Shown: piece by piece, positions 5,998 to 42,506 of the stretch
Layout: each line of letters starts with the position of its first letter
Numbering within the stretch: the first letter of the stretch is position 1
Assembly (NCBI GenBank): GCA_046262595.1
Contig: JBHEMM010000020.1
Location: 501 to 43,413 of the forward strand
Reading direction: 5' to 3'
Length of the DNA stretch: 42,913 nt
Source: Vulcanimicrobiaceae bacterium
GTDB lineage: Bacteria > Vulcanimicrobiota > Vulcanimicrobiia > Vulcanimicrobiales > Vulcanimicrobiaceae
Made by a program: the position numbers and the translations under genes
Notes under the pieces: model-generated
Seen by the model: the letters and a program-made list of their open reading frames with translations, nothing else
What the model was told of the DNA's origin: nothing
Databases searched by the model: none

Positions 5998-6000
5998 ACG

Positions 6001-6471: not shown

Positions 6472-6488
6472 GTGTTGCTAGCTATTCC

Positions 6489-20842: not shown

Positions 20843-20847
20843 GATCG

Positions 20848-24001: not shown

Positions 24002-24510
24002 CGCGGCTGCCTGCCCAATGCGGCCACGACGGCTTCGAACGCATCGTTGCACACGACCGGCGCGCACGCGATCTCCTTCGCCAGCGTAACGCTCGTAGGC
24101 ACCATGACGGCGAACGCGCCGGCAGCGCGCGCGGCTTCCACATCGCTGCCGATGTCGCCGATCACGGCGATTTCATGCGGCCCGACGCCGAAGGCTTGCG
24201 CGGCCTGCATGATCAGGCCCGGCTGCGGCTTACGGCACGCGCAGTGTGCGGCAGCGGCATGCGCGCAGACGAACCACCCGTCGAATTGACCGAATTGCTG
24301 CTCGATCAGCGCGTGCGTGCGCTGCATGCGTTGCGCCGCACCCAGGTCACCGGCGAGCTGCGGCTGATTCGTGACGACACCGACTTTCAGACCGCACTCG
24401 CGCACGAATTCCACGGCGGCAACTGCGCCGCGCATCGCCTTCACCGTTTCTGAAGCCGGATCGTCGGCGATCAGCGTTCCGTCACGATCGAACAGCACGG
24501 CGCGAATCAT
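23998..24510 (-). CDS. HAD-IIIA phosphatase, GmhB (heptose-1,7-bisphosphate phosphatase)-like
   Basis: ATG 24510. FDRDGTL, VTNQ, CAH....CACRKPQPG, IGDIGSD. Confidence 0.85.
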   Translation of the reverse strand: MIRAVLFDRDGTLIADDPASETVKAMRGAVAAVEFVRECGLKVGVVTNQPQLAGDLGAAQRMQRTHALIEQQFGQFDGWFVCAHAAAAHCACRKPQPGLIMQAAQAFGVGPHEIAVIGDIGSDVEAARAAGAFAVMVPTSVTLAKEIACAPVVCNDAFEAVVAALGRQPR

Positions 24511-25430
24511 TGGGCGCCCCGCTGTGCGAACGCGAAAGCCGCGCCTGCCCGCGCCCGGTGGTAGACCGCCGCAAACGGAATGACGGCGCTGGTCGCAACC
24601 ATCGCGGCGATCTCGCGAGCCGTTCGCGGGCCCGGCGCGATGCGGCGCAGCGCGAACTCGGCCGTAAGCGCCGCCCAGCCGGCGGCACACAAAACGGTAG
24701 CAAGATGCAGCGGCCACCGTCCGGTGCCCGCGCCGATCGCTTTGCGCCATGACCGCCCATGCAGCATGCGCATCAGCACGTCGTCCGCATTGCCGGCTTG
24801 CAGCCGTACGCTGATCCACGCATCGGCCGGACGCACGGGATGCACGGCGCGTCGCGAGCCGCGCACGATCGCAAAGCCGGCTTTTACGGCGCGAAGGGCA
24901 AAATCGGAATCTTCGCGGTACGCGCGCTTGAACCGTTCGTCGAAACCGTCGAGCTGTTCCAGGACGTCGCGCCGGTAGATCATATCGGCGGTGATCCACT
25001 GCGCGCGAGAAAGACCCGCGACGTTGCGCTCCCAATCGCTCGGCGCGCGGTTCGGCGGAAGCGGCACGTCGAGCTGCGCCTGAGAACCGGCAACCGTACC
25101 GGCAAGCGCACGCGCGTCGGCAGCTGCTCTTTGAAGCCAGTCTTCGCCGACGCGGACGTCATCGTCGAGAAAGGCGATGTGCGGGGCGTCCGATGCGCGC
25201 CAGCCGGCGTTTCGCGCCGAAGCAGGGCCCGCTGCCTTTCCCGCGACGACGGACACGCGCGCACGAAGGCGCGGGGCGACGCGCGTGAGCGAGAGCGGCT
25301 CGCGCCGGTCGCGGCGATCGTCCACGACGATGACGCGGCCGGGAAGCTCGCCGGACGATCGCGCAATCGAGTCGAGCAAATCGTACAGCGAGGCGCGGCC
25401 GATCGTTGGAACGACGATGTCAAACGGCAT
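24507..25430 (-). CDS. Glycosyltransferase family 2
   Basis: ATG 25430. IVVPTIGR, GPASARNAG, FLDDD, GFDERF..YREDSD. Confidence 0.85.
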   Translation of the reverse strand: MPFDIVVPTIGRASLYDLLDSIARSSGELPGRVIVVDDRRDRREPLSLTRVAPRLRARVSVVAGKAAGPASARNAGWRASDAPHIAFLDDDVRVGEDWLQRAAADARALAGTVAGSQAQLDVPLPPNRAPSDWERNVAGLSRAQWITADMIYRRDVLEQLDGFDERFKRAYREDSDFALRAVKAGFAIVRGSRRAVHPVRPADAWISVRLQAGNADDVLMRMLHGRSWRKAIGAGTGRWPLHLATVLCAAGWAALTAEFALRRIAPGPRTAREIAAMVATSAVIPFAAVYHRARAGAAFAFAQRGAQ

Positions 25431-27066
25431 GCGCGAGCACTCCGGCGCGGCGCAGAAGATAGGGGCCGATCGCAAGCGCATCGAGCGGCGTCGATCCGAA
25501 GCACTCGAGCGCGTCGCGCGGTTCGTCGACCATCGGACGGCCCGCGGTGTTGAAACTCGTATTGATGACGACCGGAATGCCGGTGAGCCGTTCGAACTCA
25601 CGCAGCATGCGGGCGACCAGCGGCTCCTCGCGTTCGTCCACTGTCTGCACGCGCGCCGTTCCGTCGACATGCACGGCCGCGGCGATCGCCTCTCGCCACT
25701 GCGGCTTCACGCGATGCGTGAAAAGCATGTACGGGCTAGGAAGTTGACCCTCGAAGATCTCCGGCGCGCGATCCGCGAGAACCATCGGCGCGACGGGCCG
25801 GAATTGCTCGCGCCCTTTGATATTGTTCAGGCGTTCGAGGTTCTGCGCAAATTTCGGATTCGCGAACAGGCTGCGGTGACCCAAAGCCCGCGGCCCAAAT
25901 TCGCTGCGGCCTTGAAACCACCCGACGACGCCGTCTTGCGCTAGAATACGCGCAACCTCGAGCGCGATATCGTCGGGCGTTTCGTGCTGCACGTTCGCGA
26001 CGTTAAGCCGTCTGCCGAGCTCCGCATCGTCCCATTCACGCCCCAGCGCCGCGGTCGTCATCGGTACGACACGCTCTCCGTGTTTGTGAGCGGCGAACAT
26101 CGCTGCGCCGAGCGCCGTTCCCGCATCGCCGGCAGCCGGTTGAACCCAAATGCGCTCGAACGGGCCTTCGCGCGCCAAACGCGCATTCGCAACGCAATTC
26201 AACGCCACGCCGCCCGCCATCGTCAAAACGCGATCGCCGGTGCGCTGCGCCAGCCACTGCGCAAGTTCGAGCAGCACTTCTTCCAAACGCGTTTGCACGC
26301 TCGCCGCTAAATCGGCGTGTGCGCCGGAAAACGGGCCGTCGGCCGCGCGCGCAGGCGCAAACTCGCAGAAGTCGAGCGGATCGACCGCAAAACCGCCTCC
26401 GGGAAGCACGCGCACTGCCGAGCGAAGCGCGTCCAAAAACTTCGGTTTCCCGTAACCCGCCAAGCCCATGACCTTGTACTCGTCGGAGGAGCGGTGGAAA
26501 CCAAGGTGCACCGTGAGCTCTTCATAGAGCAGGCCCAGCGAATGCGGCAACTCTTGCGAGGCGAGGATGTTCAGGCGGCCGTCGCGCACTTTGCCGGCAA
26601 CGTACGACCCGCGCTCCCCGCGGCCGTCGGCAACGATGACCGCACAATCTCCGAGCGGAGCGGCTAAGTAGGCCGAAGCGGCGTGCGCGATGTGGTGAGG
26701 AACGAATTCAAAGGCCGCGCGTTCGATGCCCGGCAGCGCCGCGCGCAAAAAATGCGGCGCGCGCTTAGCGTAAAGCGTACGCAGCGCTTCCCAGTCGTTT
26801 TCCATGACATCGTCCGACACGCTTGTCGCGAGTGACGGATCGTACGAGTACGCGATGACATCGACGTCTTGCGGTTTTAATCCGGCGTATTGCAAGCACC
26901 ACGCGGCCGCTTGCACGGGGAGCTCCCATGCGGTGAACGGCATGCAGTTCTTCGCGTGCTTGCGGCGGTTGAAGCGCTCTTCCTCGCTTGCGGCTACAAT
27001 GCGGCCGCCGACGCTCAGCGCCGCCGACGAATCATGGAACACTGCATTTATGCCAAGAATATTCAT
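25420..27066 (-). CDS. O-carbamoyltransferase (NodU/CmcH/TobZ family)
   Basis: HDSSAAL, EEERFNRRKH, HHIAHAASA, EYKVMGLA, GGVALNC, EFGPRALG, KGREQFRP, INTSFN. Confidence 0.95.
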   Translation of the reverse strand: MNILGINAVFHDSSAALSVGGRIVAASEEERFNRRKHAKNCMPFTAWELPVQAAAWCLQYAGLKPQDVDVIAYSYDPSLATSVSDDVMENDWEALRTLYAKRAPHFLRAALPGIERAAFEFVPHHIAHAASAYLAAPLGDCAVIVADGRGERGSYVAGKVRDGRLNILASQELPHSLGLLYEELTVHLGFHRSSDEYKVMGLAGYGKPKFLDALRSAVRVLPGGGFAVDPLDFCEFAPARAADGPFSGAHADLAASVQTRLEEVLLELAQWLAQRTGDRVLTMAGGVALNCVANARLAREGPFERIWVQPAAGDAGTALGAAMFAAHKHGERVVPMTTAALGREWDDAELGRRLNVANVQHETPDDIALEVARILAQDGVVGWFQGRSEFGPRALGHRSLFANPKFAQNLERLNNIKGREQFRPVAPMVLADRAPEIFEGQLPSPYMLFTHRVKPQWREAIAAAVHVDGTARVQTVDEREEPLVARMLREFERLTGIPVVINTSFNTAGRPMVDEPRDALECFGSTPLDALAIGPYLLRRAGVLAHAV

Positions 27067-27198
27067 TCGCGCCCGCTGCCGTTGAAGTGCATGAACGCCG
27101 GAGCGTCCGCCCTTATTGCTTCGTACGAGGAGTGTTTCCGGTGAGTGGAAACTTAAACGCTCAGGTTAAAAGGGGGCACTTCATGGAATGAACCCTCC

Positions 27199-28518
27199 AT
27201 GATGTACGGCATTGCAGTATTCGGCTGCGGATACGTCGGGTTGGTGACGGCTGCATGTCTTTCCAACTTAGGTCATCATGTCGTTTGTTTCGATACCGAA
27301 CAGATGCGCGTGCGCGACTTGCAGCTTGGCCGCCTGCCGTTCTACGAACCGGACTTAGAACCGCTGATCGCGCAAGGGCGTGAACGCGGGCTTCTGCATT
27401 TTGCAGCGTCCGCCGGCGAAGCGCTCGCCGATGCGGATGTTGCATTCATCGCCGTCGGAACGCCCACCGGACCGACCGGCGAAGCTGATTTAACGTACGT
27501 CCGCCAATGCGTGCTCGATATTTCGGCGCACGCAGCGCGCCCGCTTATCCTCGTGAATAAATCGACGGTTCCCGTTGAAACCGCGGACTACGTTCAACGG
27601 CTCATCGAACGGCATGCGCCCGATCGAACGCGGTTTACGGTTGCCTCGAACCCGGAGTTTTTGCGCGAAGGAAGCGCAGTGCACGACTTCATGCACCCCG
27701 ATCGCATCGTGATCGGATGCGCCGACACGCGCGCGGCAAAAACGCTTGAAGCGATCTACGCGCCGCTTGCTGCGCCAACGTTCATCGTCGACGTCCATAC
27801 GGCCGAGATGATCAAGTACGCCGCAAATGCGTTCTTGGCGACGAAAATCTCGTTCATCAACGAGATTGCCAACCTGTGCGCGGCGGTCGACGCCGATGTC
27901 GACGGCGTGATCGCGGGCATTGCCGCCGACGCGCGCATCGGCCGCTCGTATCTTGACCCCGGATTAGGTTTCGGAGGCTCCTGCTTGCCCAAAGACGTGG
28001 CGGCGCTCGCAAGCGTCGCGCGTAAACACGCGATAGAACCCACGATGCTCGACGCGACGCTGGCGGTAAACCGGCGTCAGGTCGCACACGCCGTGCGCTT
28101 GATTGAAGACGCGCTCGGAGATCTGTTCGACCGCCGGATAGCCGTTGCCGGCGTTGCGTTCAAGGCGGGCACGGACGACATCCGCGAATCGCCCGCGCTG
28201 GTTCTCGTGGAAGCGCTGCTGACGCGCGGAGCCCGTGTGACGATCTACGATGCGCACGCGCTTGCCCGCGCCCGCGTTGTTTTCGAAGACCGCGTCCGGT
28301 ATGCGGAATCGATCTACGAAGCTGCCGCCGGCGCCGATGCGCTTGCAATCGCGAACGACGACCCGTCGTGCACGCACGCATCGTGGCCGCGCGTTGCCGC
28401 GGCGCTCGCACAACCCTTTCTCATCGACCTGCGCAACAAGACGGACCGGCAGGAGCTGCAGAACGCCGGTTTGCGATACACCGGCGTCGGCCGGGCAGCG
28501 CTGCCGGTGGCGTCGTGA
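27199..28518 (+). CDS. ugd: UDP-glucose 6-dehydrogenase
   Basis: GCGYVG, IAVGTP, NKSTVP, SNPEFLREG, KYAANAFLATKISFINE, GFGGSCLPKD. Confidence 0.92.
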   Translation: MMYGIAVFGCGYVGLVTAACLSNLGHHVVCFDTEQMRVRDLQLGRLPFYEPDLEPLIAQGRERGLLHFAASAGEALADADVAFIAVGTPTGPTGEADLTYVRQCVLDISAHAARPLILVNKSTVPVETADYVQRLIERHAPDRTRFTVASNPEFLREGSAVHDFMHPDRIVIGCADTRAAKTLEAIYAPLAAPTFIVDVHTAEMIKYAANAFLATKISFINEIANLCAAVDADVDGVIAGIAADARIGRSYLDPGLGFGGSCLPKDVAALASVARKHAIEPTMLDATLAVNRRQVAHAVRLIEDALGDLFDRRIAVAGVAFKAGTDDIRESPALVLVEALLTRGARVTIYDAHALARARVVFEDRVRYAESIYEAAAGADALAIANDDPSCTHASWPRVAAALAQPFLIDLRNKTDRQELQNAGLRYTGVGRAALPVAS

Positions 28519-29480
28519 ACGTGCTCATTACCGGCGCCGCCGGTTTCCTGGGCTCGCATCTTGCGCAAGCGTACCTGCGTGAAGGCAGCTTCGTAACGGG
28601 AGTCGACAACTTCGCGACGTCGAGCGATCGCAACTTGGCAGTGCTCAGCACCGGCGACGGCTTTACGTTCGTGCGAGCGGACGTTTCGCGCGAGCTGCCC
28701 GTTCCGGCGGCCAAGCCGGACCTAATTCTGCATTTCGCCTCCCCGGCGAGCCCGGTCGATTATGCGCGTGACCCGCTCGGGACGCTGGCCGTCAACGGTG
28801 CCGGAACCATGAACTGCTGCGAACTCGCGCGGCAAACGGGTGCGCGGCTGGTGTTCGCTTCTACCTCGGAAGTATACGGCGACCCGCTCGTTCACCCGCA
28901 GCCGGAGGACTACTGGGGCAACGTCAACTCGTTCGGCGCGCGCAGTTGCTACGACGAGGGAAAGCGCTACGGCGAGGCGGCAATCGCTTCGTACCGCTCG
29001 CTATACGGCATCGACGCGCGCATCGTGCGCATCTTCAACACGTACGGACCGCGCATGCGTGCGCGCGACGGCCGCGTCGTTCCGGCATTTATTTCCCAAG
29101 CGCTCGCGGGCGAGGCGCTCACGGTGTTCGGTGAAGGCCGCCAGACGCGCTCGCTGTGCTACGTCGACGATCTTCTTGAAGGCGTCCGGCGGTTCGCTGC
29201 GCTCGAGCAGCCGCGCTTTCCGCTGCTGAACTTGGGGTCCGACCGTGAAGTGAGCGTCAACGAGATCGCACGCATCATCGCCGGCCTTTGCGGCGTGCCG
29301 CTGCGCGTCACGCACGCACCGCTCCCTGCGGACGATCCGTCGCGCCGCCGCCCCGACCTGCATCGCGCGCGCGCCATGCTGGGCTGGGAGCCGGCGACAT
29401 CACTTGAAGACGGGCTGCGCGCAACGATCGCGTGGTTCGCGCAACAACGCTCTTCGGGAAAGGAAGCATTGGCATTATGA
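28515..29480 (+). CDS. UDP-glucuronate decarboxylase (UDP-xylose synthase)-like NAD-dependent epimerase/dehydratase
   Basis: GTG 28515. TGAAGFLGSH, HFASPASP, STSEVYGDP, YWGNVN, CYDEGKR, RIFNTYGPRM. Confidence 0.88.
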   Translation: MNVLITGAAGFLGSHLAQAYLREGSFVTGVDNFATSSDRNLAVLSTGDGFTFVRADVSRELPVPAAKPDLILHFASPASPVDYARDPLGTLAVNGAGTMNCCELARQTGARLVFASTSEVYGDPLVHPQPEDYWGNVNSFGARSCYDEGKRYGEAAIASYRSLYGIDARIVRIFNTYGPRMRARDGRVVPAFISQALAGEALTVFGEGRQTRSLCYVDDLLEGVRRFAALEQPRFPLLNLGSDREVSVNEIARIIAGLCGVPLRVTHAPLPADDPSRRRPDLHRARAMLGWEPATSLEDGLRATIAWFAQQRSSGKEALAL

Positions 29481-31978: not shown

Positions 31979-33588
31979 AGCGCCCTCACGCTGATCGCGG
32001 CGGTGCGGAGCATTTCGCGGGCCGCGTTCCAGCCCGGAGCGCCCATCACGCCGCCGCCCGGGTGCGCGGCCGAGCCGCACAGATACAGGCCCTCAAGCGG
32101 CATTTTGTATCCGGCGTGTCCGGGCGCCGGACGGAACATGAACAACTTGTCCAAGTTCATCGCGCCTTGGAAAATGTTTCCGCCGGTGAGTCCGAACGTT
32201 TCTTCCAAGTCCTTCGGCATGAGGACCTGGCGATCGATCACCGACGACGTGAAACCCGGCGCGTAGTGTTCGACGGTTTCGAAACAGCGATCGGCAAAGG
32301 CGCTCTTCTTCTGCGGCGTCCAACCGCCGTCACGCAGCGCATACGGCGCGTATTGAACGAACATCGACATGAGATGTTTCCCCGGCGGAGCGACGCTCGG
32401 ATCGACCGCTGAGGGCATCGTGCACTCCACGATCGGATCGCGCGAGGGGCTTCCGTACTTCGCGTCGTCGTAACCGCGCTCGATGAAGTCCTGATCGGGG
32501 CACAGGTGCACCGTGCCGCGATGCTGCGGCCCGGATTCATGGCCGGGCAGGGCGGTAAAGTTCGGCAGGCGCTCCAACGCGACGTTGATCTTCGCCGAGG
32601 CGCTCTCATAGCTCATCGTGTTAATGCAAGCCAGGAAACCGGGCGGCAGCTGATCGTGCGCGCTCGCCAACAGCTTGTTGAATGTGACATTGCAGTCGGC
32701 GTTGGACGCAATGGTTTTCGAAAAAAACTCTTGCCCGTCCGCAAGCACGACGCCGCTCACGGTGCCGTTGCGGCTGATGATCTGCGCGACCTCGCTGTCC
32801 AAGCGGATCTCGACGCCGAGATCCGTTGCGGCGCGCGCGAGTGCTTGCGTGAGCCCGCCCATGCCGCCTTTGACGTATGCCCAGACGCCGCGTTTGCCGT
32901 TCGTCTCGCCCATGACGTGATGGAACAGCACATATGCCGTTCCCGGCATCGACGGCGCTGCAAACGCGCCGATGATGGCGTCGGTGGCGAGCGTCGCTTT
33001 CAACGCTTCGGATTCAAACCAGCGATCGAGGATCGGGCGCGCCGCGCCGGTCAACACTTCGATCGCCTCGCCCATTGCGGTACCGAGCTTCTTCACGTCC
33101 ATGCCGAGCATGCCCATTTGGAGCAGGTCGCCCAGCGACGGCTTCACGACGTTGGGCGGCCGCTTCACGAGCGTGGGTTCGATGACCGAAGCGACACGCA
33201 TGAGCATTTCTTCGTACTTCGGATAAGCGGCGGCGTCTTTTGCACTGAACTTGGAGATTTCACTCACGTTGCGCTGCGGCGATCCGCCGAGCATCAAGTA
33301 CCGGCCGTCCTCAAAAGGTGAAAACGACGCCGGATCGCGCTCGAGCAGCTCGAATCCGTATGCGTCCAAGTGAAGGTCGCGTACGATCTCCGGCCGGAAC
33401 AGGCTGTTGACGTATGCCGCCGTGGAGACTTTAAAGCCCGGAAACGTTGCTTCTTCCGTGACGCAAGCGCCGCCGGCGATATAGCGCCGCTCCAACACGA
33501 GCACGTTCCATTTCGCTTTTGCCAGATAACAGGCCGTTACGAGGCCGTTGTGGCCGCCCCCGATGACGATCGCGTCGTAGGTTTTCAT
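31975..33588 (-). CDS. FAD-dependent oxidoreductase, COG1233/PYROXD2-like (alternative start GTG 33597)
   Basis: GGGHNGL, VLERR..GGA, GGMGGL, GGNIFQG, LYLCGSAAHPGGGVMGAPG. Confidence 0.85.
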   Translation of the reverse strand: MKTYDAIVIGGGHNGLVTACYLAKAKWNVLVLERRYIAGGACVTEEATFPGFKVSTAAYVNSLFRPEIVRDLHLDAYGFELLERDPASFSPFEDGRYLMLGGSPQRNVSEISKFSAKDAAAYPKYEEMLMRVASVIEPTLVKRPPNVVKPSLGDLLQMGMLGMDVKKLGTAMGEAIEVLTGAARPILDRWFESEALKATLATDAIIGAFAAPSMPGTAYVLFHHVMGETNGKRGVWAYVKGGMGGLTQALARAATDLGVEIRLDSEVAQIISRNGTVSGVVLADGQEFFSKTIASNADCNVTFNKLLASAHDQLPPGFLACINTMSYESASAKINVALERLPNFTALPGHESGPQHRGTVHLCPDQDFIERGYDDAKYGSPSRDPIVECTMPSAVDPSVAPPGKHLMSMFVQYAPYALRDGGWTPQKKSAFADRCFETVEHYAPGFTSSVIDRQVLMPKDLEETFGLTGGNIFQGAMNLDKLFMFRPAPGHAGYKMPLEGLYLCGSAAHPGGGVMGAPGWNAAREMLRTAAISVRAL

Positions 33589-33613
33589 GGGCGCCACATA
33601 CTATTGAAGGCTC

Positions 33614-33802
33614 ATGAAGTCCCTGGCGCGCTTCGGACTTGCCGCGATTCCCTCGATCATGCTTATTGCGGCACCTTTCTTGGTGAACGCCGATCGGCCG
33701 CGCGTGTTCGGGCTGCCGCTGCTTCTGGCGTGGATCGTCGCATGGGTGGTGCTCACGCCGTTCTTTCTCTTCGGCGCCGACCGCTTTCGCGAGGAACGAT
33801 GA
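33614..33802 (+). CDS. DUF3311 small membrane protein
   Basis: PFLVN..RPRVFGLPLLLAWIVAW; ATGA overlap with the SSS gene. Confidence 0.75.
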   Translation: MKSLARFGLAAIPSIMLIAAPFLVNADRPRVFGLPLLLAWIVAWVVLTPFFLFGADRFREER

Positions 33803-35229
33803 CCCCCGGCATTCAGGCAATCACGATCATCGCGGCCGTGGTTCTCGCCACGATCGGCTTCGCGCTTTACGCGGTACGCCGCTTCAAGATGGAGCCGCAG
33901 GAGTTTATCGTCGGCGGACGCTCGTTCGGCGCGCTGCTGCTGTGGATCTTGCTCGCGGGCGAGATTTATACGAGCTTCACGTTTTTGGGCGCCGCCGGCT
34001 ATGCGTACGGGCGGGGCGCGCCCGCATATTACATTATGGCGTACGGCACGGTGGGGTATACGATCGCGTACTTCTATTTGCCCGCAGTGTGGCGCATCGG
34101 CAAGCAGCGTAATCTGATGACATGGCCCGATTTTCTGTTCGACCGTTACGGAAGCAGAGCGCTCGCCGTTACCGTTGCGGTACTGCAGTTCTTCCTCGCG
34201 GTCCCCTACGTTACGCTGCAATTGAGCGGCCTGCAAACGATTTTAACGATCGCCGGATACTCGCAGTTCAACGCGACGGCCGACGTGGGCATCGCGTTTG
34301 TGCTGATGTCGCTTTTCGTGTTCACGGCCGGGCTGCGCGGTGCGGCCTGGGCAAGCGTCATCAAAGACGCGCTGGTTTTGATTGCCGTGCTGTTCGCCGG
34401 AATCTATCTGCCGCTGCATTTTTTCGGCTCGGCCGGCGCGATGTTCGATCGCGTCGCCGCCGCCCATCCGCATTGGCTTTGGCTGCACGCCGGCGGCGCC
34501 CCGTTCGGCACAAACTGGTACGTCTCGACGGTGCTCTTGACGAGCATCGGCTTTTTCATGGGACCGGCGAGCGCGCAATCGATCTTTTCGGCACGCAACG
34601 AGCAGTCCGTGCGGCGCAATATGATGCTCATGCCGATCTATCAACTCGTCATTATCTTCGTTTTACTCGCCGGCTTTACCGCGCTTGTCGTCACGCCCGG
34701 CCTCACGGGTAAGGCCGTCGATCAGTCGTTTCTGCTGCTGCTGCAGCATTATTTTCCGGCCTCGGTGCTCGGTTTCGTGGGCGCTGCCGGGTGCCTGGCG
34801 GCGCTTATCCCGGCTTCCGTGCTGCTTCTGGGCGCGGCCAGCATTTTTTCGAAAAACGTCATCGGGAACACGCGCTACGTGCGCGTGCTCGTGTTGGTTT
34901 GCGCCCTTCTGGCGCTCGTTTTGTGGCTGTTTGCGAGTGCGAATTTGGTGGATCTGCTCTTGTTCTACTACAACGGCATCACGCAGTTTGCGCCGGGTAT
35001 TCTGCTCGCACTGTGTTGGCGGCGCGTGAGCGCCTGGGGCGCCGGAGCGGGACTTGCCGCCGGCGAGCTCGTCGCGTTGTGGTTTCTGCACTCGACCTAT
35101 TCGACGAGCGGTCCGGCCGGTATCAATCCCGGCCTCCTCGCGCTAGCATGCAACGTCGCCGTGCTGGTTGCTGTCACGCTGGTTTTTCCGCGGGCGCAAA
35201 AGTTGCGGGCCGCGAACGACTCGCCCTGA
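33799..35229 (+). CDS. Sodium:solute symporter
   Basis: ATG 33799. EFIVGGRSFG, AGEIYTSFTFLG, PYVTLQLSG, GLRGAAW; multiple transmembrane segments. Confidence 0.85.
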   Translation: MTPGIQAITIIAAVVLATIGFALYAVRRFKMEPQEFIVGGRSFGALLLWILLAGEIYTSFTFLGAAGYAYGRGAPAYYIMAYGTVGYTIAYFYLPAVWRIGKQRNLMTWPDFLFDRYGSRALAVTVAVLQFFLAVPYVTLQLSGLQTILTIAGYSQFNATADVGIAFVLMSLFVFTAGLRGAAWASVIKDALVLIAVLFAGIYLPLHFFGSAGAMFDRVAAAHPHWLWLHAGGAPFGTNWYVSTVLLTSIGFFMGPASAQSIFSARNEQSVRRNMMLMPIYQLVIIFVLLAGFTALVVTPGLTGKAVDQSFLLLLQHYFPASVLGFVGAAGCLAALIPASVLLLGAASIFSKNVIGNTRYVRVLVLVCALLALVLWLFASANLVDLLLFYYNGITQFAPGILLALCWRRVSAWGAGAGLAAGELVALWFLHSTYSTSGPAGINPGLLALACNVAVLVAVTLVFPRAQKLRAANDSP

Positions 35230-37298
35230 CACTTCGCCTCGACGCCGTCCGGATCTGCCGGCGGCTCCGCGCGGAACGGAATGTCGTCAACCGAGTCGAG
35301 CGGTTCGTAGCCGAGCGATCGCGCCCGGTCCAACGACCAAAACGCCGCGCTGTTGTTGGAAATTCCGTAAACGCACGTGTAGCTGACCGGCTCGTGTTCC
35401 AGCGCGGCAAGCAGCAACTGCGCCAGATCGCGCGGACTGATCCAGATCGCCCGGTCTATGTCGTACTGGGGGTGCGCCGCGACGTGCCCAATGCGCAGGC
35501 ACACCACCTCGAGACCGTACTTATCCGCATAGTGCCGCCCCAGCGCTTCGGCGAACACCTTGGAAACCGCGTAGAAGCTGTCGGGCCGCACGGGGGCCGA
35601 TTCGTCAATCGCAATCGCGCGCGGATAGAATCCCGTCACGTGACCGGTGCCCGCCAGCACCACGCGCCGCACGCCTTCAAGGCGCGCCGCTTCCAGCACG
35701 CTATACGTGGCGCGCATGTTGTGCTCGAGCAGACGGTCAAACGAGTTCTCTTTCGAAATCCCGCCCAGATGAACGACCGCACGCGCGCCCCGCATTGTTT
35801 TGCGCGCGGCGTCCACGCTGCGCAGGTCCGCGCGGATGAAGCGGTCTTCGCCTTTGGGGATTTTGAAAGGAACCGCATCGGTTAACCACAACGGCCCGAG
35901 CGCATCGCGCAGGCGATCTCCGACCAGACCAAAGACATTTCCGGCGGCGCCGGTTATCAGCACGGGTCCGCCGTCCGCTGCGGGCGCAGCAACTGCGCGG
36001 CGTTTCTGCACGAGCTCGCGCACAATGGCAACAATGCGCTGCGCGTCCGCGCGCTTGGGAATCCACAGCTGCCCGGGCGGTATGCGCGTCGCGCGGAAAA
36101 ACACAACAGTATTGAACAGGGCCCCGGCAACGTACGTTACGGTTGAGGCCAAAGCGGCGCCGGCCAAACCGAAGCGCGGCACGAGCGCAAAGCACGCCGC
36201 TGTTTGTGCCGCAATCATGACGATGTTGACCGCGGTTACGAGCAGCGGCCGCCCGAGTTGAAAAATGAAAAATGATGCAAACGTGCCGGCACTGCTGAAA
36301 GCAACGATGCCGGGCAAGAGCACGCGCATCGGCGTGGCGGCAGCGTCGAATCGCGCACCGTAGACGGCATGCACGAGCAGCGGCGCAAAGACCGCAAGCG
36401 GCACGGCGCACAGCAAGCAGATAGCAAAGCCGGCGCGCACCACATGCGCGGTGATCTCTGCGGCGCGGCCTTCGCTTGCGACGCCGATTTCTCGCCCAAC
36501 CGCGGCGTTGACCGGGCGAGCGATCATGAACAGCAGCTCGCCGATGCTCACGGCGACGGAGTAAACGCCGAAGACCGGCAAACCCAGCAGCGCGATCAGA
36601 ATGAGCGAATCGACCCGGTAGTTCAGCAGCCCCAAACCGGAGTTCAACGCCGATTGAGCGCCGAATTGCGCGAATTCACGCAGGCGGGCGCCAAGCTCGC
36701 GCCGGTGCAGGCGGCCCGCATCCCGCGCAACGTCCGCAGCAATCGCGACGGCACCGGCGTACAGCGCCAAGAGCCACGCGGCAATGACGCCGGGCGTCTC
36801 GCGGCCGAACGCGAGCGCTGCCGCGGTGAGAGCCAGCGTACCGAACGCAATCGCGATGGATTGAATGTTGAACGTGCGCAGGCGGTCGGCGGCGACGTAA
36901 TAGTTCTGCTGCCAAGCGATGACGACCGACGGCGGCAGGCCGGCCGCAAAACCGATCGCGGCAAGCGTCCATCCGTGGATGCCCGCATAGATTGCGCAGG
37001 CGGCGGTGCAAAACGCCGTAATCAGTCCAAACGTAACGGCGATGGCGGGCAACAGCTCACTTGCGGTGCGCCGCTGCTTCGTCATCAAATACGTTATCGC
37101 CGCGCCCGCGCCGCCCGCGACAGCAACCGGAATTGAAAGCAGCGTTTGCACGCCGCTATAAACGCCTTTGCCCTCGGGGCCGAGCGCGCGAGCGACGATG
37201 ATGCCGGTCAGGACGGCGAATGCGGAAACAAGCAGGCGCGCCGCAAACGTTTGCGCGGCCTTTGCGCCGACTGCGGCGCCGAAGCTGCGTGCGGCCAT
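35097..37298 (-). CDS. Wzx/MOP-type flippase fused to a uronate-dehydrogenase-like extended SDR
   Basis: ATG 37298. Membrane part has IVARALGPEGKG, NYRVD.LIL..LLG...FGVYSVA, VYGARF and LVPRFGLAGAALAS. Soluble part has LITGAAG, VHLGGISKE, RPDSFYAVSK and LRIG. No stop between the two parts. Confidence 0.8.
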   Translation of the reverse strand: MAARSFGAAVGAKAAQTFAARLLVSAFAVLTGIIVARALGPEGKGVYSGVQTLLSIPVAVAGGAGAAITYLMTKQRRTASELLPAIAVTFGLITAFCTAACAIYAGIHGWTLAAIGFAAGLPPSVVIAWQQNYYVAADRLRTFNIQSIAIAFGTLALTAAALAFGRETPGVIAAWLLALYAGAVAIAADVARDAGRLHRRELGARLREFAQFGAQSALNSGLGLLNYRVDSLILIALLGLPVFGVYSVAVSIGELLFMIARPVNAAVGREIGVASEGRAAEITAHVVRAGFAICLLCAVPLAVFAPLLVHAVYGARFDAAATPMRVLLPGIVAFSSAGTFASFFIFQLGRPLLVTAVNIVMIAAQTAACFALVPRFGLAGAALASTVTYVAGALFNTVVFFRATRIPPGQLWIPKRADAQRIVAIVRELVQKRRAVAAPAADGGPVLITGAAGNVFGLVGDRLRDALGPLWLTDAVPFKIPKGEDRFIRADLRSVDAARKTMRGARAVVHLGGISKENSFDRLLEHNMRATYSVLEAARLEGVRRVVLAGTGHVTGFYPRAIAIDESAPVRPDSFYAVSKVFAEALGRHYADKYGLEVVCLRIGHVAAHPQYDIDRAIWISPRDLAQLLLAALEHEPVSYTCVYGISNNSAAFWSLDRARSLGYEPLDSVDDIPFRAEPPADPDGVEAKCQGESFAARNFCARGKTSVTATSTATLHASARRPGLIPAGPLVE

Positions 37299-37299
37299 G

Positions 37300-38412
37300 T
37301 TAGGGGCTGCCAGTGCCCGGCAGGCGCGCGGCGAAGGCGGCGCCGGCGAGCATCCTGCCGCCAAGGACGCGCGCGCGGCGGGCCAGCGTTTGACGCACGC
37401 CGTCGTTGGCGTACGCAGCCGGCAGCGCCAGCGCCGTCGCCGGTCCGCGCAGCCGCCGTCCGTTCGCGTAGTATGCGTCGGTCAAGTGCATGCGTCCGCG
37501 AAACGGACGCGGCAAGCCTTCGCGTTCCAGCGCCCATGCCACATAACGGCGCACGTCCGCTCCAAAGCGCTGCGGCAAACCGGCCATTGCAGCCGCGGCG
37601 CATAATGCCGCCTGCAGCGGTACGCGCTGCACCTTCTCGCGTGCACTGGCCTCCGCAAGCCGATCCAGCAGCGCGGTTTTGCCGTGCACAATCATCGCGA
37701 TCTGCACGACGTCGCCCAAACGGTACAATCCCGCGCCATGCAGCGCAAGATGAAGCGCCGAACCGTACTCATCCAAACGGGTGGCCGGGCCGGCGGGTCC
37801 TTCGATCTGCCGGTGGTAAGGCGCGAGCGCGTCCCAGCCCGTCGCAAGCGTGAAAGAACCGCGCGGCGCCAGGGCAACGTGAAGCTCCAATGCTTTGCTG
37901 AATGCCGGCGAGACGAGCGGCGCGAGATGGTGATGGCGCATGCGGTAACCGGCGGCTACGCCGGGCTGCTCGTACGCATAGCCTGCCGCCGCAAGCGCCG
38001 TTACGGCGGCGTCCGCATCTTGCGGGCGCACCAGCGCGTCGAGGTCGAAGATCTGCGAACGTTCCGCGATCGGATCGCCCGCATAAAGCCGCGCCGAACT
38101 TTTGAGCAAGACGGCCGGAATCCGCGCATCCCGCAGCACGGACACGATCTGCGCGGTCTGCGCGCGCGCTTCAACCGCCTGCAGCGCGAACGTCCCCGCA
38201 TAACGCTGCAGCATGACGCGCAGCGGCCGCAACTCGGGCGCGCCGATGCGGTGCGTGAGGAACGCTTCGAGCAGATACGCGCTGCATTTGTGACGCGCCG
38301 AATGTCCGAACAGCTGCGCGCCCGGAACGGAGTGCAGCGCGGACTTCAGGCGTTCGTGATCTGGCCGCACGAGCGCCGTCATCGCTTCGAACAGCGCGGA
38401 AAACGGCCGCAT
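37300..38412 (-). CDS. Nucleotidyltransferase (NTP_transf_5-like, as found in lasso peptide loci)
   Basis: VLLKS, R...DLDALV and LELH motifs; operon context. Confidence 0.75.
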   Translation of the reverse strand: MRPFSALFEAMTALVRPDHERLKSALHSVPGAQLFGHSARHKCSAYLLEAFLTHRIGAPELRPLRVMLQRYAGTFALQAVEARAQTAQIVSVLRDARIPAVLLKSSARLYAGDPIAERSQIFDLDALVRPQDADAAVTALAAAGYAYEQPGVAAGYRMRHHHLAPLVSPAFSKALELHVALAPRGSFTLATGWDALAPYHRQIEGPAGPATRLDEYGSALHLALHGAGLYRLGDVVQIAMIVHGKTALLDRLAEASAREKVQRVPLQAALCAAAAMAGLPQRFGADVRRYVAWALEREGLPRPFRGRMHLTDAYYANGRRLRGPATALALPAAYANDGVRQTLARRARVLGGRMLAGAAFAARLPGTGSP

Positions 38413-38877
38413 TTAACCGCTCTTCTCCAGAACGATCTCCCGCACGCCGCCGGTAAACGCGATGGGCGGTCCCTCGATAACCGAGCCGTCATGCGAGACC
38501 CACGCATGGCCGTGCAGCCGCTCGCGCGAGTTGCTGCGGTGCTCGATCCCAAAATGCAGGCGAAGCCTTCCGGTATCGCACTGCAGAAAACGGTACAGCG
38601 TCATTGCGCGAATGTAGCACGTGTTATGCCGAGGGAAAAAGCGAACCAGCCAAAAGGCGCGCATCCGCGAAAGCGTTCCCCGATCCGCGCGCCGCAACGC
38701 GCCCTCGCGCAGCGTGCGCACAAACGACGAAAGTTCCGTCTTCGCCATACGGTTAGGTGCCGTCGCGATAAACCATCCCACCTGCACAAAGAGCGGCAGG
38801 TTGCGCGGATGGCCGACGACCGCTCTGAAGCGCTGCGCGATGCCGCGCGGCGTCCAGGGTGGGGCTAACATCTCCAC
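38413..38877 (-). CDS. Lasso peptide B2-type transglutaminase-like leader peptidase (start GTG 38877 or ATG 38871)
   Basis: TCYIRAMTLY (catalytic Cys), LHFGI, GHAWV (catalytic His); about 150 aa. Confidence 0.85.
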   Translation of the reverse strand: MEMLAPPWTPRGIAQRFRAVVGHPRNLPLFVQVGWFIATAPNRMAKTELSSFVRTLREGALRRADRGTLSRMRAFWLVRFFPRHNTCYIRAMTLYRFLQCDTGRLRLHFGIEHRSNSRERLHGHAWVSHDGSVIEGPPIAFTGGVREIVLEKSG

Positions 38878-39746
38878 CGCCGCCGTTCGCGCGCGCTGTA
38901 AAATGTCGCGATAAAGCCTGCCTGCTGTGCCGCCGCGCGCACCAGCCCGCCTTTACGCAATACCGCCGTATCGCCATGCGCGGGAACGGCGGCGTAAACG
39001 GCCTTCACCAACACGTCACCGGCGGCGCGCGTCTGGTGCAGCACATTCCACCGCATAGCCGACCGGTGCGCCAGCACGAACTGCGCGTATCCGACGCCAT
39101 AGAAGAACTGCTGCCGCCAGTACGCGCGCCACGTCCGGCGGTGACGGTGCATGACCAGCGCGCGCGGCTCGTAAACGAATGGTCCATCGTGCAGCCGCCG
39201 CATTCGCGTGTGGAGATCGCAGGCGTCGTACGTGGCAAAGCGCGCGTCGAACCCGCCCGCTTCCTGAACATACGCTTTACGGTATAAGGCGTTGCTCGTC
39301 GGTGCGAATGGGAAACGCGGATGCCGCAGCGAGCGGATAGGGTCGAGTCCGCCCATCAGATCGACGAACCGCGCCGCGGGCGTCGCCGATTGAAAACCCG
39401 TCGTTTTACCTGCTGCACCCAACGCGCCGGGTTCGCGCTCTGCGGCGCGCACGAGTGAGGCGAGCCAACCCCGCGAACACACGCAATCACTGTCGGTGAA
39501 CGCGATCCACGCGCCTGCAGCGTGCGCAATTCCGGTGTTTCGCGCCGCCGGCGCGCCGGCATTGCGCTGACGTATCACCTGTACGCCGCACGCTTTCGCG
39601 ATTTCCGCCGAATTGTCGGTGGACCCGTCGTCGACCACGATGATCTCGTACTGGTCTCTCGCAAGCGTTTGATACGCCAGCGAGCGCAGGCACTCTGCGA
39701 GCGTATCGGCGCCGTTGTATACCGGAATAACCACCGAAACGTTCAT
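38865..39746 (-). CDS. Glycosyltransferase family 2
   Basis: ATG 39746. VSVVIPVYN, VDDGSTD, ARNTG, FTDSD, GGFD. Confidence 0.9.
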   Translation of the reverse strand: MNVSVVIPVYNGADTLAECLRSLAYQTLARDQYEIIVVDDGSTDNSAEIAKACGVQVIRQRNAGAPAARNTGIAHAAGAWIAFTDSDCVCSRGWLASLVRAAEREPGALGAAGKTTGFQSATPAARFVDLMGGLDPIRSLRHPRFPFAPTSNALYRKAYVQEAGGFDARFATYDACDLHTRMRRLHDGPFVYEPRALVMHRHRRTWRAYWRQQFFYGVGYAQFVLAHRSAMRWNVLHQTRAAGDVLVKAVYAAVPAHGDTAVLRKGGLVRAAAQQAGFIATFYSARERRRWRC

Positions 39747-40636
39747 GCGCCGCCCCTGCGCACGTGCCACGCGCGCAAACCGAAGCCGAGCCAAAAGTTT
39801 TTGGTCCAGAGCGACTGGTAGCGCAGAAACTCCGCCCGCCGTTGGTCGAGGATGCCGAAAGCGCAGCCCGCGGCGGCAGCCGCTGGCGTGAGCGCGCGCG
39901 AAAGCAGGACACCGCACAACCGCAGGGCTTTCGCCGCGTCCCACTGCACTTCGCAGGGGTACATGCGGTAAAGATCGGCAACGCCGGCGCCGTAACTGCG
40001 CGCTTGGCGCCGCAACGCGGCGTCATCGGCGCGCGCGCGATGGTAGAGCACCGCATCCGCACAATAGACGACGCCCTCGCCGTACGCGCGCTGCAGGCGG
40101 TATGAAAAATCGACGTCTTCGCCCGTGAGCAGCGCTTCGTTCCAGCCGCCCACGGCGCGGGCCGCAGCAGCACGCACGGCCAAATTGAGCGAGGGAGCGA
40201 ACGGAAAAGGCTTGCGCGCGGCGGCAATCTGCGCATCGTATAGACCCGCAGCTTGGACGTAACGTTCCGCCGGTGTTTGCGGCGGATAACACAGCGTATG
40301 CCCTGAGACGAGCACCGTCTCGGGCTCGGCAAACGGCTTGACGATCTCGCTCAGCCACCGGCGGCTGGGCACCGTATCGGCATCGAGATGTACGACGATC
40401 GCGCCCTGCGCGGCACGCAAGCCGCAGTTTCTTGCTGCAGCCGGCCCCCGCCGGATCTCGTCGAGAACGCGCGCGCCCGATGCGTGCGCGAGCGCCTTCG
40501 TGCCGTCTGTCGAGCCGTTGTCCACGACGATCAGCTCGAAAGCCGGCGGCCGCGCCTGCGAGCGCAGCGCGCGAAGCGTTTCACCCAGCGTCGATTCCGC
40601 GTTCAACGCCGGGATAACGACCGAAACGTCCGTCAT
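39743..40636 (-). CDS. Glycosyltransferase family 2
   Basis: VSVVIPALN, VDNGSTD, ARNCG, HLDAD, GEDVDF. Confidence 0.9.
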   Translation of the reverse strand: MTDVSVVIPALNAESTLGETLRALRSQARPPAFELIVVDNGSTDGTKALAHASGARVLDEIRRGPAAARNCGLRAAQGAIVVHLDADTVPSRRWLSEIVKPFAEPETVLVSGHTLCYPPQTPAERYVQAAGLYDAQIAAARKPFPFAPSLNLAVRAAAARAVGGWNEALLTGEDVDFSYRLQRAYGEGVVYCADAVLYHRARADDAALRRQARSYGAGVADLYRMYPCEVQWDAAKALRLCGVLLSRALTPAAAAAGCAFGILDQRRAEFLRYQSLWTKNFWLGFGLRAWHVRRGGA

Positions 40637-41616
40637 CGCAACGCATCCTCAATGCCGGCGAGCCATCCGGAGCTCCGGTAGGCATCTTGGCCGATTTCGA
40701 GGCGCACGCCGCGCATGCCGCGCAGCGCGGCCATCGTTTGCGTGAGCGTCCAGCGCGCAACCGGCGCATCGCACGGAAGCACAATTTGCCGCAGCAGCGC
40801 GGCCGCGCTTTGCGAGACCGTCATCGGCGCGGACCGGATGCCTGCGTGCGCTGCGGTGCGAGCAACTTCTACGATGTGCGTCGGCCGGGCGTGCGGCCGG
40901 GCTGCGCCGGGACGAACCCTATCGAGGTGAACGCGGCGCTTGTCCGTCCAGGCGGAGTAACGCGGCAGCGAAGCGAGGTCGCGTAAATCGAACCAGCGCC
41001 CTGTGGCCGGGTCTAAGTTAAACGTTTGCAGCAAAGAGCGCAGAACGGGCTTACCGCCTTCATTGCGCAGGAGCAGTTTATCATCCCCGAGCGTCGACCA
41101 CCCGTTTAAGACGAGCGCCGTCGTCAGCGTGCTTTTTCCGCCCCCCGATGCAGCGCACAGCAGCGCGCACACATCGCCCTTAACCACGGCGCCCGCATGC
41201 AGCGCCACGAAACCCTCGTTTCGCCAACCCGCGGTACAAATGAGCGAAAACACGTCTTCCATGTCGCCGACTTGCGGCTCGTCGAAAACCGTTTCCGGTG
41301 GAACGGAGATCGTCCAAACGTCTGTACCTGCAACGGTGGAACCGCGGGCGACGAAGCCGTACTGCGTATCGGCAACATACGAATCGCCCGTGCGGTCGAC
41401 CGTCATGTGCGCGCAGGAAACGAACGTTCCGCTTGCGCGCACACCCAGCGCCCGGCGTTCCAAGTGCACCTCGACGCGGCGCGTGCGCTCTCTCCACGTC
41501 CGGCTGAACAGCGAGACATAGTTGCAGGCGACGGCAGCGAGCTCGCCGTCGGCTGCGCTAATGCTCAGGTCCAACGGCCCGCAACTGCCGGTAATGCGCT
41601 CGACCGCGGCCAGCAT
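40633..41616 (-). CDS. HPr-kinase-like P-loop Ser/Thr kinase (lasso peptide kinase-like)
   Basis: ALHAGAV, Walker A ASGGGKSTLT, LGDD motif. Confidence 0.8.
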   Translation of the reverse strand: MLAAVERITGSCGPLDLSISAADGELAAVACNYVSLFSRTWRERTRRVEVHLERRALGVRASGTFVSCAHMTVDRTGDSYVADTQYGFVARGSTVAGTDVWTISVPPETVFDEPQVGDMEDVFSLICTAGWRNEGFVALHAGAVVKGDVCALLCAASGGGKSTLTTALVLNGWSTLGDDKLLLRNEGGKPVLRSLLQTFNLDPATGRWFDLRDLASLPRYSAWTDKRRVHLDRVRPGAARPHARPTHIVEVARTAAHAGIRSAPMTVSQSAAALLRQIVLPCDAPVARWTLTQTMAALRGMRGVRLEIGQDAYRSSGWLAGIEDALR

Positions 41617-41617
41617 G

Positions 41618-42022
41618 CTACTCGGCCAGCGGTATGCTGGGATCGAACGCGCTGGTTACGACGCTTTGCAGCGGTTCAGCGTGACGTTCGATGGTGGGCG
41701 CAACCCAAGGCGCCGCGTATGTGGCGACCTCGGGCGCGGCATCCTCAGTGGACGGCTCGAGCAAATTCTCCGCCGATAAGTGCGCGAGAAAGCTGCGGAC
41801 TTCGTCCTCGCCGCTCGCGCCCCACAGGATGCATTGCCGCACGATCCGTTCCGGCGACGCGCCGGAGATCTCGAACAACTGCACGATTGCCCATGCCGAC
41901 CGGTTGAGCGAATAAAAGTACTTGGTTTCAAGGTCCAGCAGAACGGCGCCGCCTTCGACGACCGTAGCAACAAGCGCGGGCCGCAAGGCAACGGCCGCGG
42001 CGCGTATATCCGTCCCGATCAT
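41618..42022 (-). CDS. PqqD/RRE domain protein with a C-terminal leader/core-like peptide extension
   Basis: GGAGGGG RBS 7 nt before ATG 42022. RRE signature AVLLDLETKYFYSLNRSAWAIVQL...EVRSFLAHLSAENLLE, then the tail YAAPWVAPTIERHAEPLQSVVTSAFDPSIPLAE. Confidence 0.85.
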   Translation of the reverse strand: MIGTDIRAAAVALRPALVATVVEGGAVLLDLETKYFYSLNRSAWAIVQLFEISGASPERIVRQCILWGASGEDEVRSFLAHLSAENLLEPSTEDAAPEVATYAAPWVAPTIERHAEPLQSVVTSAFDPSIPLAE

Positions 42023-42044
42023 AACTTTTCCCCTCCGTGCGAAC

Positions 42045-42133: not shown

Positions 42134-42170
42134 AAAAAGCAGGAAGCGCGCCTATCGGCCGGCTTCCTGC
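42134..42170 (-). terminator. Intrinsic terminator after the CxxC-x17-CxxC gene
   Basis: 9-bp stem GCAGGAAGC/GCTTCCTGC followed by TTTTT on the minus strand. Confidence 0.75.
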
Positions 42171-42188: not shown

Positions 42189-42506
42189 TTAGCGGTAAGA
42201 CGGGCGCGATGCAAAGCAGTCGCGGCAATATACGGGCTTGTCGCCGCGCGGCTGAAACGGAACTTCCGCAACGCCGCCGCACTGGCTGCATGTGGCTTGG
42301 AACATTTCCCGACGCGCACCGCCGCCGGCGCCCACGCCGCCGCCGCCTCCCGAACTGGTGCGCATTTGCTTGCGCGCCGTACGGCAATCGGGGCAACGGT
42401 TCGGCTTATTCTGAAAACCTTTTTGAGCGTAAAACTGCTGTTCACCCGAAGTGAACGCGAACTCACGTCCGCAGTCGACACAGTTCAGCATTTCATCAAC
42501 GTACAC
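42189..42506 (-). CDS. Zinc-ribbon plus CxxC-x17-CxxC domain protein
   Basis: CVDC...EQQFYAQKGF...RCPDC, Gly-rich linker, CSQC-x17-CRDC; GGGAG RBS. Confidence 0.9.
   Translation of the reverse strand: MYVDEMLNCVDCGREFAFTSGEQQFYAQKGFQNKPNRCPDCRTARKQMRTSSGGGGGVGAGGGARREMFQATCSQCGGVAEVPFQPRGDKPVYCRDCFASRPSYR

Follow-up and report, generated by a model that had tools for sequence, protein, structure and literature searches.

A candidate cyclase-free, lasso-related operon whose RiPP recognition element carries a conserved precursor-like tail, from a Vulcanimicrobiaceae genome

Introduction

The closest described system to the seven-gene operon analysed here is that of the linear polyphosphorylated peptides (LPPs) of Bacillota, reported by Popov et al. 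(Nat Commun 2026, PMC13381572). The operon lies on the minus strand at 35097-42022 of a stretch of 42,913 nucleotides (nt), hereafter the window, from a Vulcanimicrobiaceae bacterium (assembly GCA_046262595.1, contig JBHEMM010000020.1, positions 501 to 43,413). Linear phosphorylated peptides made by an RRE (recognition element of RiPPs, peptides that are ribosomally synthesised and then modified post-translationally), an HprK-like kinase and a nucleoside triphosphate (NTP) transferase without a cyclase were already published in May 2026 for Bacillota, as LPPs. According to PMC13381572, LPPs are linear because the cyclase is missing, and the RREs of both lasso and LPP pathways bind the leader motif [Y/W]xxPx[L/V/I/F/A]. 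In the solved complexes of that report, pockets receive the aromatic, Pro and hydrophobic residues of the motif, and the RRE sheet is extended by the residues that come next. The LPP consensus is given there as YxxPxVLxHQxIxFET/xxS, in which the Tyr occupies -16 and the Ser that is polyphosphorylated occupies +3, 18 residues further on. In lasso leaders, YxxPxL is found at -17 to -12, and phosphorylated lasso precursors have Ile or Val at -2 (PMC10368454). The HprK-like kinases LppK and BsfK phosphorylate a Ser of RRE-presented precursors, and the NTP transferase PsmN is required for hexose addition to the phospho-Ser of pseudomycoidin (PMC6993621).

Compared with these systems, the operon in the window is probably, though far from certainly, a cyclase-free pathway derived from lasso peptide biosynthesis that acts on an RRE-tethered precursor, the RRE's own tail, and gives a phospho-glycopeptide.

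Results and discussion

An RRE fused to a conserved tail

A first-pass annotation of this DNA, made from the letters alone, had described seven co-oriented genes with gaps of at most 1 nt or overlaps, which the list of open reading frames (ORFs) and the sequence confirm. With the likeliest start codons, the junctions are, in gene order, +1, -4, -4, -7 to -13, 0 and +1 nt. The genes and the parts of the first protein are as follows.

41618-42022, minus strand: RRE with tail, 134 amino acids, ATG at 42022; PqqD 23.7 bits against a Pfam cut-off of 23.4
41750..42022, minus strand: RRE domain (PqqD/lasso-B1-type), residues 1-91; Pfam, AlphaFold2 (AF2) model, PDB fold and sequence matches
41708..41749, minus strand: variable linker, residues 92-105, sequence-variable over 51 aligned homologues
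41618..41707, minus strand: conserved 29-residue tail W106-E134 and stop codon (residues alone 41621-41707), WxxPxI then EPLQ....SAFDPSIPLAE; predicted substrate part
40633-41616, minus strand: P-loop kinase with HprK/phosphoenolpyruvate carboxykinase (PEPCK) fold, 327 amino acids, 1-nt gap after the RRE stop; AF2 model, Foldseek
39743-40636, minus strand: family 2 glycosyltransferase (GT2) GT2a, 297 amino acids, 4-nt overlap; Glycos_transf_2 103 bits
38865-39746, minus strand: glycosyltransferase GT2b, 293 amino acids, 4-nt overlap if the start is the ATG of MNVSV (39746); Glycos_transf_2 124 bits
38413-38877, minus strand: lasso-B2-like transglutaminase-fold cysteine peptidase, 154 amino acids, 7-13 nt overlap; Transglut_core3 37.2 bits
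37300-38412, minus strand: NTP_transf_5 nucleotidyltransferase-fold protein, 370 amino acids, 0-nt gap; PF14907 55.6 bits
35097-37298, minus strand: flippase-SDR fusion (Wzx/MOP-like domain and extended short-chain dehydrogenase/reductase, SDR), 1-nt gap if the start is the ATG of MAARSFG; accessory part

The best PDB folds for the RRE are the lasso B1 proteins TbiB1 (30% identity) and TfuB1, and a profile search of PDB sequences returned TbiB1 (E 2e-8), TfuB1 (E 1e-5) and PbaB1 (E 0.04). Against the NCBIfam lasso_PqqD models the RRE stays below the cut-off (25.8 vs 70). A PqqD-fold RRE (B1), which is discrete or fused in lasso clusters, is present in this operon.

Homologous loci were found with a kinase profile (69 loci), and the gene upstream of the kinase was taken from 64 of them. 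Each of these RRE-tail homologues has three parts: a linker of variable sequence joins the PqqD domain to a tail whose length is fixed. A motif search places the Trp exactly 29 residues from the C-terminus in 61 of the 64 homologues; two of the exceptions have a shifted Pro and the third is a frameshifted gene. The tail follows the pattern W-x-x-P-x-[ILVM]-x-[RK]-[HQ]-x-E-P-L-Q-x-[IVL]-[IVM]-x-S-A-F-D-P-[STG]-[ILVM]-P-L-[AV]-E, in which W0, S18, F20, D21, P22, P25 and E28 are invariant in 63/63 distinct DNA sequences (2-6 synonymous codons each). Since the invariant residues use mixed synonymous codons, it is the peptide that is under selection, rather than the DNA or RNA.

The WxxPxΦ of the tail is the published RRE-binding leader motif. 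W106 and the invariant S124 are 18 residues apart, and the H/Q at +8 also corresponds to the LPP leader. As the tail is of fixed length, conserved at the protein level and provided with an RRE-binding leader motif, it is the obvious precursor candidate. By analogy only, cleavage would release VTSAFDPSIPLAE in the LPP register or TSAFDPSIPLAE in the lasso register; in the lasso register, position -2 is I or V in most homologues.

An AF2 model of the RRE-tail protein was built on 51 homologues and has a predicted local distance difference test score (pLDDT) of 86.7 overall, with about 96 for the RRE domain and 96 for the stretch 101-110, in which WVAP lies. A strand at residues 111-113 comes right after WxxPxI, and residues 118-125 are helical. 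That this region is modelled with high confidence and has its strand where one is expected suggests, indirectly, that the tail docks in the RRE cleft.

The genome to which the window belongs (2.4 Mb, 122 contigs, 89.7% complete) holds one RRE-tail gene, one such kinase and one B2, the latter being the only Transglut_core3 match of the genome. No other tail-like (SAFDP-type) peptide was found in it. Four short proteins that match the tail only (P0270, P0280, P0228 and P0237) were considered as free precursors; they look like truncated gene calls and were not counted as evidence.

Conservation and distribution of the cassette

Based on tblastn searches with the window proteins, the order RRE, kinase, GT2, GT2, B2 is kept nearly everywhere in the 69 loci. 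Co-conservation was counted over those loci that reach at least 600 nt upstream and at least 5000 nt downstream of the kinase; 51 loci qualified, and the 18 shorter ones were dropped. B2 is present in all 51 loci, the RRE in 50 and two or more GT2 genes in 46, and all five core genes (RRE-tail, kinase, two GT2, B2) are present with their order kept in 45/51. Among the six loci in which the core is incomplete, L022 and L047 have frameshifts and L029, L035 and L037 a single GT2; another is L012, which has too little upstream DNA in a different gene order. NTP_transf_5 was found in 42/51 loci by tblastn and in five more, all from Verrucomicrobiota, by ORF clustering, giving 47/51. The flippase occurs in 21/51 loci and the SDR in 7/51. 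The flippase, which the first-pass annotation had made part of the system, is therefore present here but is not a conserved core member.

The cassette loci span at least eight phyla and all come from metagenome-assembled genomes (MAGs). According to the record titles, their hosts are Eremiobacterota/Vulcanimicrobiota, Verrucomicrobiota, Chloroflexota, Alpha-, Gamma- and Deltaproteobacteria, Gemmatimonadota, Actinomycetota, Planctomycetota (Phycisphaerae), Myxococcota, Binatia and others. Within the phylum of the window, the RRE-tail was found in 18/301 sampled genomes (13/234 high-quality genomes, 12/100 genera), a patchy distribution as expected of an accessory cassette.

Several variants of the arrangement were observed. 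A stand-alone SDR, the same domain as the flippase-fused one in the window, lies between the RRE-tail gene and the kinase in L039 (889-3037), L147 (7989-10334) and L150. Some genomes have two cassette copies (L052 and L054 on the same MAG contig; two matches in G282:C3), and L052 and L068 have a split cassette, with a GT2 and B2 about 7 kb upstream of the NTP transferase, RRE, kinase and GT2. Downstream of the cassette in L057-L067 (Verrucomicrobiota) lies a conserved 135-residue protein (cluster 20) without a Pfam family; genes for DnaJ and an HtrA-type protease come next, on the opposite strand.

Absence of a lasso cyclase

The operon had been described as devoid of a cyclase, an ABC exporter and a separate precursor, and the Pfam scan and genome search bear this out. 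No Asn_synthase domain was found by Pfam in the seven operon genes, so the Asn-synthase-like macrolactam cyclase (C protein) of lasso clusters is absent there. A separate precursor of the lasso type is absent too: the operon has no intergenic room, and the genome has no other tail-like peptide. Neither cleavage register of the fused tail places an acidic residue at core position 7-9.

Within the fetched flanks of the 69 loci, no AsnB/cyclase homologue was found (0/69) by phmmer, by tblastn with the AsnB of this genome or by a PP-loop pattern. The same search did find homologues in two unrelated loci, L075 and L080, whose resemblance to the kinase is confined to the P-loop and which serve as positive controls. 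The genome search for Asn_synthase-type cyclases that the first-pass annotation had proposed as a check gave one strong match (PF00733), a 655-residue frame on contig C9, and two more at the family cut-off. The strong match is of the AsnB type, as indicated by its MCGIAG N-terminus and SGGIDS motif, and its gene adjoins a flippase paralogue and GT2 genes, on another contig than the operon. When 20 host genomes were searched with PF00733, six had no match and several others only weak PP-loop matches. One Asn_synthase match (G004:C4:803822-804637) was considered as a neighbour of L020 and rejected, the two being on different contigs (1.83 Mb vs 2.67 Mb).

B1-like and B2-like genes without a cyclase, as in the window genome, are also what a decayed lasso peptide cluster would leave behind after loss of its cyclase and precursor. 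We consider such decay very improbable, since the cyclase-free arrangement is kept in 45/51 loci over many phyla, none of the 69 loci has a cyclase within its fetched flanks, the catalytic residues are conserved and the tail is under purifying selection at the protein level. Co-conservation without a cyclase, another check that had been proposed, gave a positive answer, and together with the conserved tail it marks the operon as a conserved cyclase-free derivative of lasso type rather than a decayed cluster.

Enzymes and proposed mechanism

The kinase has no match in the local Pfam library and only weak P-loop matches in NCBIfam, with HprK_rel_A at 40.7 bits against a cut-off of 200. Its AF2 model (pLDDT 91.8) has PEP carboxykinases and HPr kinase/phosphatase as best Foldseek matches, which points to an HprK/PEPCK P-loop fold, and the Walker A motif SGGGKST and the motif LGDDK are invariant in 17 homologues. 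The earlier label of an HPr-like kinase is thus supported by the fold of the model, while sequence support for it is weak. Most of the kinase homologues (P0002-P0066) carry PF27840.1 as precomputed Pfam label.

For both glycosyltransferases, MftF is the best NCBIfam model, with 146.8 bits for GT2a and 155.5 bits for GT2b against a cut-off of 280. The B2-like peptidase is above the Transglut_core3 cut-off of 26 bits and below that of the lasso B2 model NF033537 (29.4 vs 33 bits); its C87, H108 and H124 are at least 95% conserved (50 sequences). In the NTP_transf_5 protein, K104, D123, D125 (DxD), G144 and H178 are at least 95% conserved (51 sequences). A second NTP_transf_5 paralogue was seen elsewhere in the window genome (G000:C16:12037-12966), with 34% identity over 319 residues.

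The flippase domain has about 10-12 hydrophobic segments and scores 22.1 bits with Polysacc_synt, below the cut-off of 28.2, one homologue being above it. The C-terminal domain of the fusion is an extended SDR (Epimerase 73 bits), for which the best NCBIfam model is Azf (124 bits against a cut-off of 400). The first-pass annotation had named this protein a flippase-Udh fusion; flippase-like and SDR domains are indeed present, but the Udh identity did not find support. All operon products except the flippase domain are without membrane-type hydrophobic segments, which fits a soluble peptide or protein substrate.

As to the mechanism, the leader-like WxxPxΦ would dock in the RRE cleft, either in cis or between molecules, and the RRE would offer the tail to the kinase for phosphorylation at the invariant Ser124. 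The PsmN-like NTP_transf_5 protein may be needed for the first sugar on the phosphate, and the two GT2 enzymes may extend from there, on the phosphate or on nearby residues. The B2-like peptidase would then cut off a modified peptide of 12-13 residues. In this genome, the flippase-SDR fusion might serve both to provide a sugar in oxidised or epimerised form and to export what is made. A rationale for the tethering is offered, by analogy, by the RRE of LPP biosynthesis, which is insoluble without its leader (PMC13381572). Given a tail that stays invariant from phylum to phylum, the product is likelier to be a conserved molecule, associated with the envelope or used in signalling, than a variable antibiotic.

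A wider superfamily of RRE-tail proteins

A search with the RRE-tail profile returned 1732 representatives at E <=1e-3, 63 at <=1e-10 and 13 at <=1e-30. The second-tier full-length matches are RRE-tail fusions too, with other conserved tails, and none of these second-tier relatives reaches an NCBIfam cut-off. The tail forms and architectures are as follows.

Tail variant: ..PPRLxRHDxPLNQILSNPFDPxVPLAE
Tail variant, Asn or His replacing Ser: ..PELVKHDEPL......PFDPQLPLAE
Tail variant: W..Px[LV]xPHGxPL..VI..PFDPTxPIPE
Class 2 tail: [YFW]xxPxLx[RK][YFH]xDMQDLLLLDPIHDVDExGWP
Class 3 tail: ends ..LALDPPLP..
Proteins with two RRE-tail units

Three proteins of 269-281 residues (P0226, P0227 and P0244) have two tandem RRE domains, each followed by its own [Y]xxPxL leader-like motif, the second unit ending in a class 3 tail. 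Class 2 is present in at least 601 metagenome stretches. Its longer loci have the RRE-tail gene, then an HprK-like gene and three or four GT2 genes (sometimes fused), followed by NTP_transf_5 or by a sulfotransferase and an ABC exporter, with an SDR often present; neither B2 nor an AsnB homologue was found in these longer loci. As class 2 shares the kinase, GT2 and NTP transferase context, an RRE fused to a leader-like tail beside these enzymes seems to be a general theme. It is possible, though we advance this tentatively, that RREs with their own leader and core as a C-terminal tail form a large unrecognised superfamily of self-tethered RiPP precursors (the SAFDP..PLAE class, the DPIHDVDE.GWP class of the metagenome stretches above, and others), making conserved phospho-glycopeptides or peptide-anchored glycans across many non-Bacillota phyla for a shared envelope or signalling function, not as antibiotics.

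The relatives also bear on what the tail is for. Even in distant subfamilies, the C-terminal Glu and FDP..P are invariant, and the best family model for both GT2 enzymes is MftF. Both observations would suit a scaffold-peptide route in which, by analogy with the logic of mycofactocin or pearlin, the C-terminal ..PLAE-COOH residues are turned into a glycosylated small molecule that B2 sets free. Such a route is rather improbable here, given that the operon has no radical SAM enzyme, oxidase or tRNA-dependent ligase by Pfam, that the MftF scores (147 and 155) are far below the cut-off of 280 and that a kinase with an NTP transferase fits phospho-sugar chemistry on Ser better.

In another explanation, the tail is not a substrate at all. 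The RRE-tail protein would act as an adaptor, its pseudo-leader tail filling or regulating the protein's own binding cleft or recruiting enzymes, and the kinase, GT2s, NTP transferase, SDR and flippase would build or decorate a polysaccharide, lipopolysaccharide (LPS) or other glycoconjugate in a glycan or envelope pathway. A tail that is invariant instead of hypervariable, the lack of the Ser in distant subfamilies and a sister class (class 2) without peptidase all agree with this, as do the surroundings: class 1 neighbourhoods hold flippases, GT4, an ABC-2 transporter and GlcNAc 2-epimerase, the class 2 locus L114 holds GT9, LpxK and HAD genes, and the window itself has an LPS-core-like block at 19.9-27 kb. 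Nevertheless, we regard a pathway of this kind as unlikely. All the enzymes are soluble, RRE domains of the lasso-B1 clade are known only as peptide-leader binders (PMC13381572), the tail matches the leader motif exactly and has a Ser spaced as in LPPs, and a B2-like peptidase, with conserved Cys and His, is present in 51/51 loci.

Modification of the RRE-tethered tail to a phospho-glycopeptide remains our preferred reading, and several points weigh against it. The last 14 residues of the AF2 model, including S124, have a pLDDT of about 56, and B2 and both GT2s are below the NCBIfam cut-offs of the named families. Distant subfamilies have Asn, His or Ala at the Ser124 position and keep FDP..P..E, so the modified residue may not be Ser124, and class 2 is without B2, so cleavage is not universal. 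A 'core' that is invariant across phyla is unusual for RiPPs and would also fit a docking or regulatory element. The NTP transferase LppN was without detectable activity in the LPP study (PMC13381572). Finally, the cassettes are often located among polysaccharide or LPS genes.

Operon boundaries and genomic context

Two signals were found upstream of the operon.

42134..42170, minus strand: intrinsic-terminator-like hairpin and U5, which terminates the upstream zinc-ribbon gene and insulates the operon (RNA fold, sequence)
42030..42036, minus strand: ribosome-binding site GGAGGGG, 7 nt 5' of the ATG of the first gene (direct sequence reading)

Both had been noted in the first-pass annotation and both were found to be real. 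The hairpin has a 9-bp GC-rich stem and an inner 3-bp stem before the U5, with an energy of -29.1 kcal/mol (z -3.08 vs 200 shuffles); it was missed by a simple terminator scan because of its long loop. The candidate promoter of the same annotation is unsupported, as a simple scan for sigma-70 sites upstream of the operon gave none on the minus strand. Directly upstream, at 42189-42506 (minus strand), lies the gene of a 105-residue protein that has a Gly-rich linker and two zinc-finger domains of the treble-clef type (zf_Tbcl, zf_Tbcl_2); this gene is ended by the hairpin. At the other end, a sodium:solute symporter ORF (33370-35229, plus strand) is convergent with the flippase-SDR gene. As listed, the two overlap tail-to-tail by about 133 nt, and no terminator was seen between their ends.

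At 2207-6932 (minus strand) the window contains a str operon segment (S12, S7, EF-G, EF-Tu, S10), an ordinary chromosomal context, which suggests that the window is not on an obvious mobile element. The LPS-core-like or glycan block mentioned above (19901-27066, minus strand) consists of two GT9 heptosyltransferase-family genes, GT4 genes, a HAD phosphatase, a GT2 and a carbamoyltransferase, and is followed at 27199-29480 (plus strand) by a UDP-glucose/GDP-mannose dehydrogenase and an NAD-dependent epimerase/dehydratase. The block at 19901-29480 may supply sugars to the operon.

Novelty and meaning

No description of the cassette or of RRE-precursor fusions was found in full-text literature searches that left supplements and subscription journals outside their scope, nor by looking up terms in the RRE surveys PMC7470986 and PMC12710340. 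If the tail is the substrate, an RRE would be covalently tethered to its own precursor and the product sequence would be conserved across phyla. Cyclase-free linear phosphorylated peptides would then extend from Bacillota to Eremiobacterota, Verrucomicrobiota, Chloroflexota, Proteobacteria and others, and RiPP-type machinery would be linked to glycan export. The system would also provide a defined acceptor peptide for probing the role of NTP_transf_5 (PsmN/LppN-type) enzymes. With a tail fixed at 29 residues, the hypothesis lends itself to a direct test by mass spectrometry.

Comparison with known systems

MftF, the best-scoring named family of both GT2s, is a GT2 whose substrate derives from a peptide and whose pathway includes a PqqD-type chaperone. 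Unlike mycofactocin loci, the operon lacks both an MftC radical SAM enzyme and an MftA-like C-terminus, and its GT2s are below the MftF cut-off. The HPr-rel-A system (TIGR04352 HprK-related kinase A, TIGR04353 PqqD family chaperone) likewise combines a PqqD-family protein with an HprK-related kinase. Its cut-offs are not reached here, with 40.7 vs 200 bits for the window kinase, no TIGR04353 match for the window RRE, and 17 vs 35 for relatives.

The phosphorylated or glycosylated lasso systems (paeninodin; pseudomycoidin, PMC6993621; Bsf, PMC10368454) have a B1 RRE, a B2 peptidase and an HprK-like kinase acting on a Ser of the RRE-bound precursor; the cassette has a B1-type RRE, a B2-like peptidase and a kinase predicted to act in this way. 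The PsmN-type NTP transferase, needed for the hexose on the phosphate in these lasso relatives, has a counterpart in the cassette. In contrast to them, the cassette is without a macrolactam cyclase, a separate precursor and an ABC exporter, and it has two dedicated GT2s.

The LPP pathway comes closest. A separate precursor with YxxPxVLxHQxIxFETxxS is absent from the operon, only WxxPxΦ, the H/Q at +8 and the Ser at +18 of the tail having a correspondence in it, and Pfam finds no signal-peptidase domain, as in the SpI (SipW-like) leader peptidase of LPPs, in the seven proteins. In LPP loci the precursors have genes of their own and variable C-termini, the peptidase is a signal peptidase of the SpI type and the exporter is MsbA-like, whereas the cassette has an invariant leader and 'core' fused to the RRE, a cysteine peptidase resembling B2 and two GT2s, joined in a subset of loci by a Wzx-like flippase. 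Both are cyclase-free relatives of phosphorylated lasso pathways and combine an RRE with an HprK-like kinase and an NTP transferase of uncharacterised function, a set recognised in the operon by family and fold (PF14907 for the NTP transferase). They also share the [Y/W]xxPxΦ leader motif and an acceptor Ser 18 residues after the aromatic residue, the Ser of the cassette being a predicted acceptor. LPP clusters are likewise often located within polysaccharide loci and patchily distributed. They are reported as confined to Bacillota, whereas the cassette is found in other phyla.

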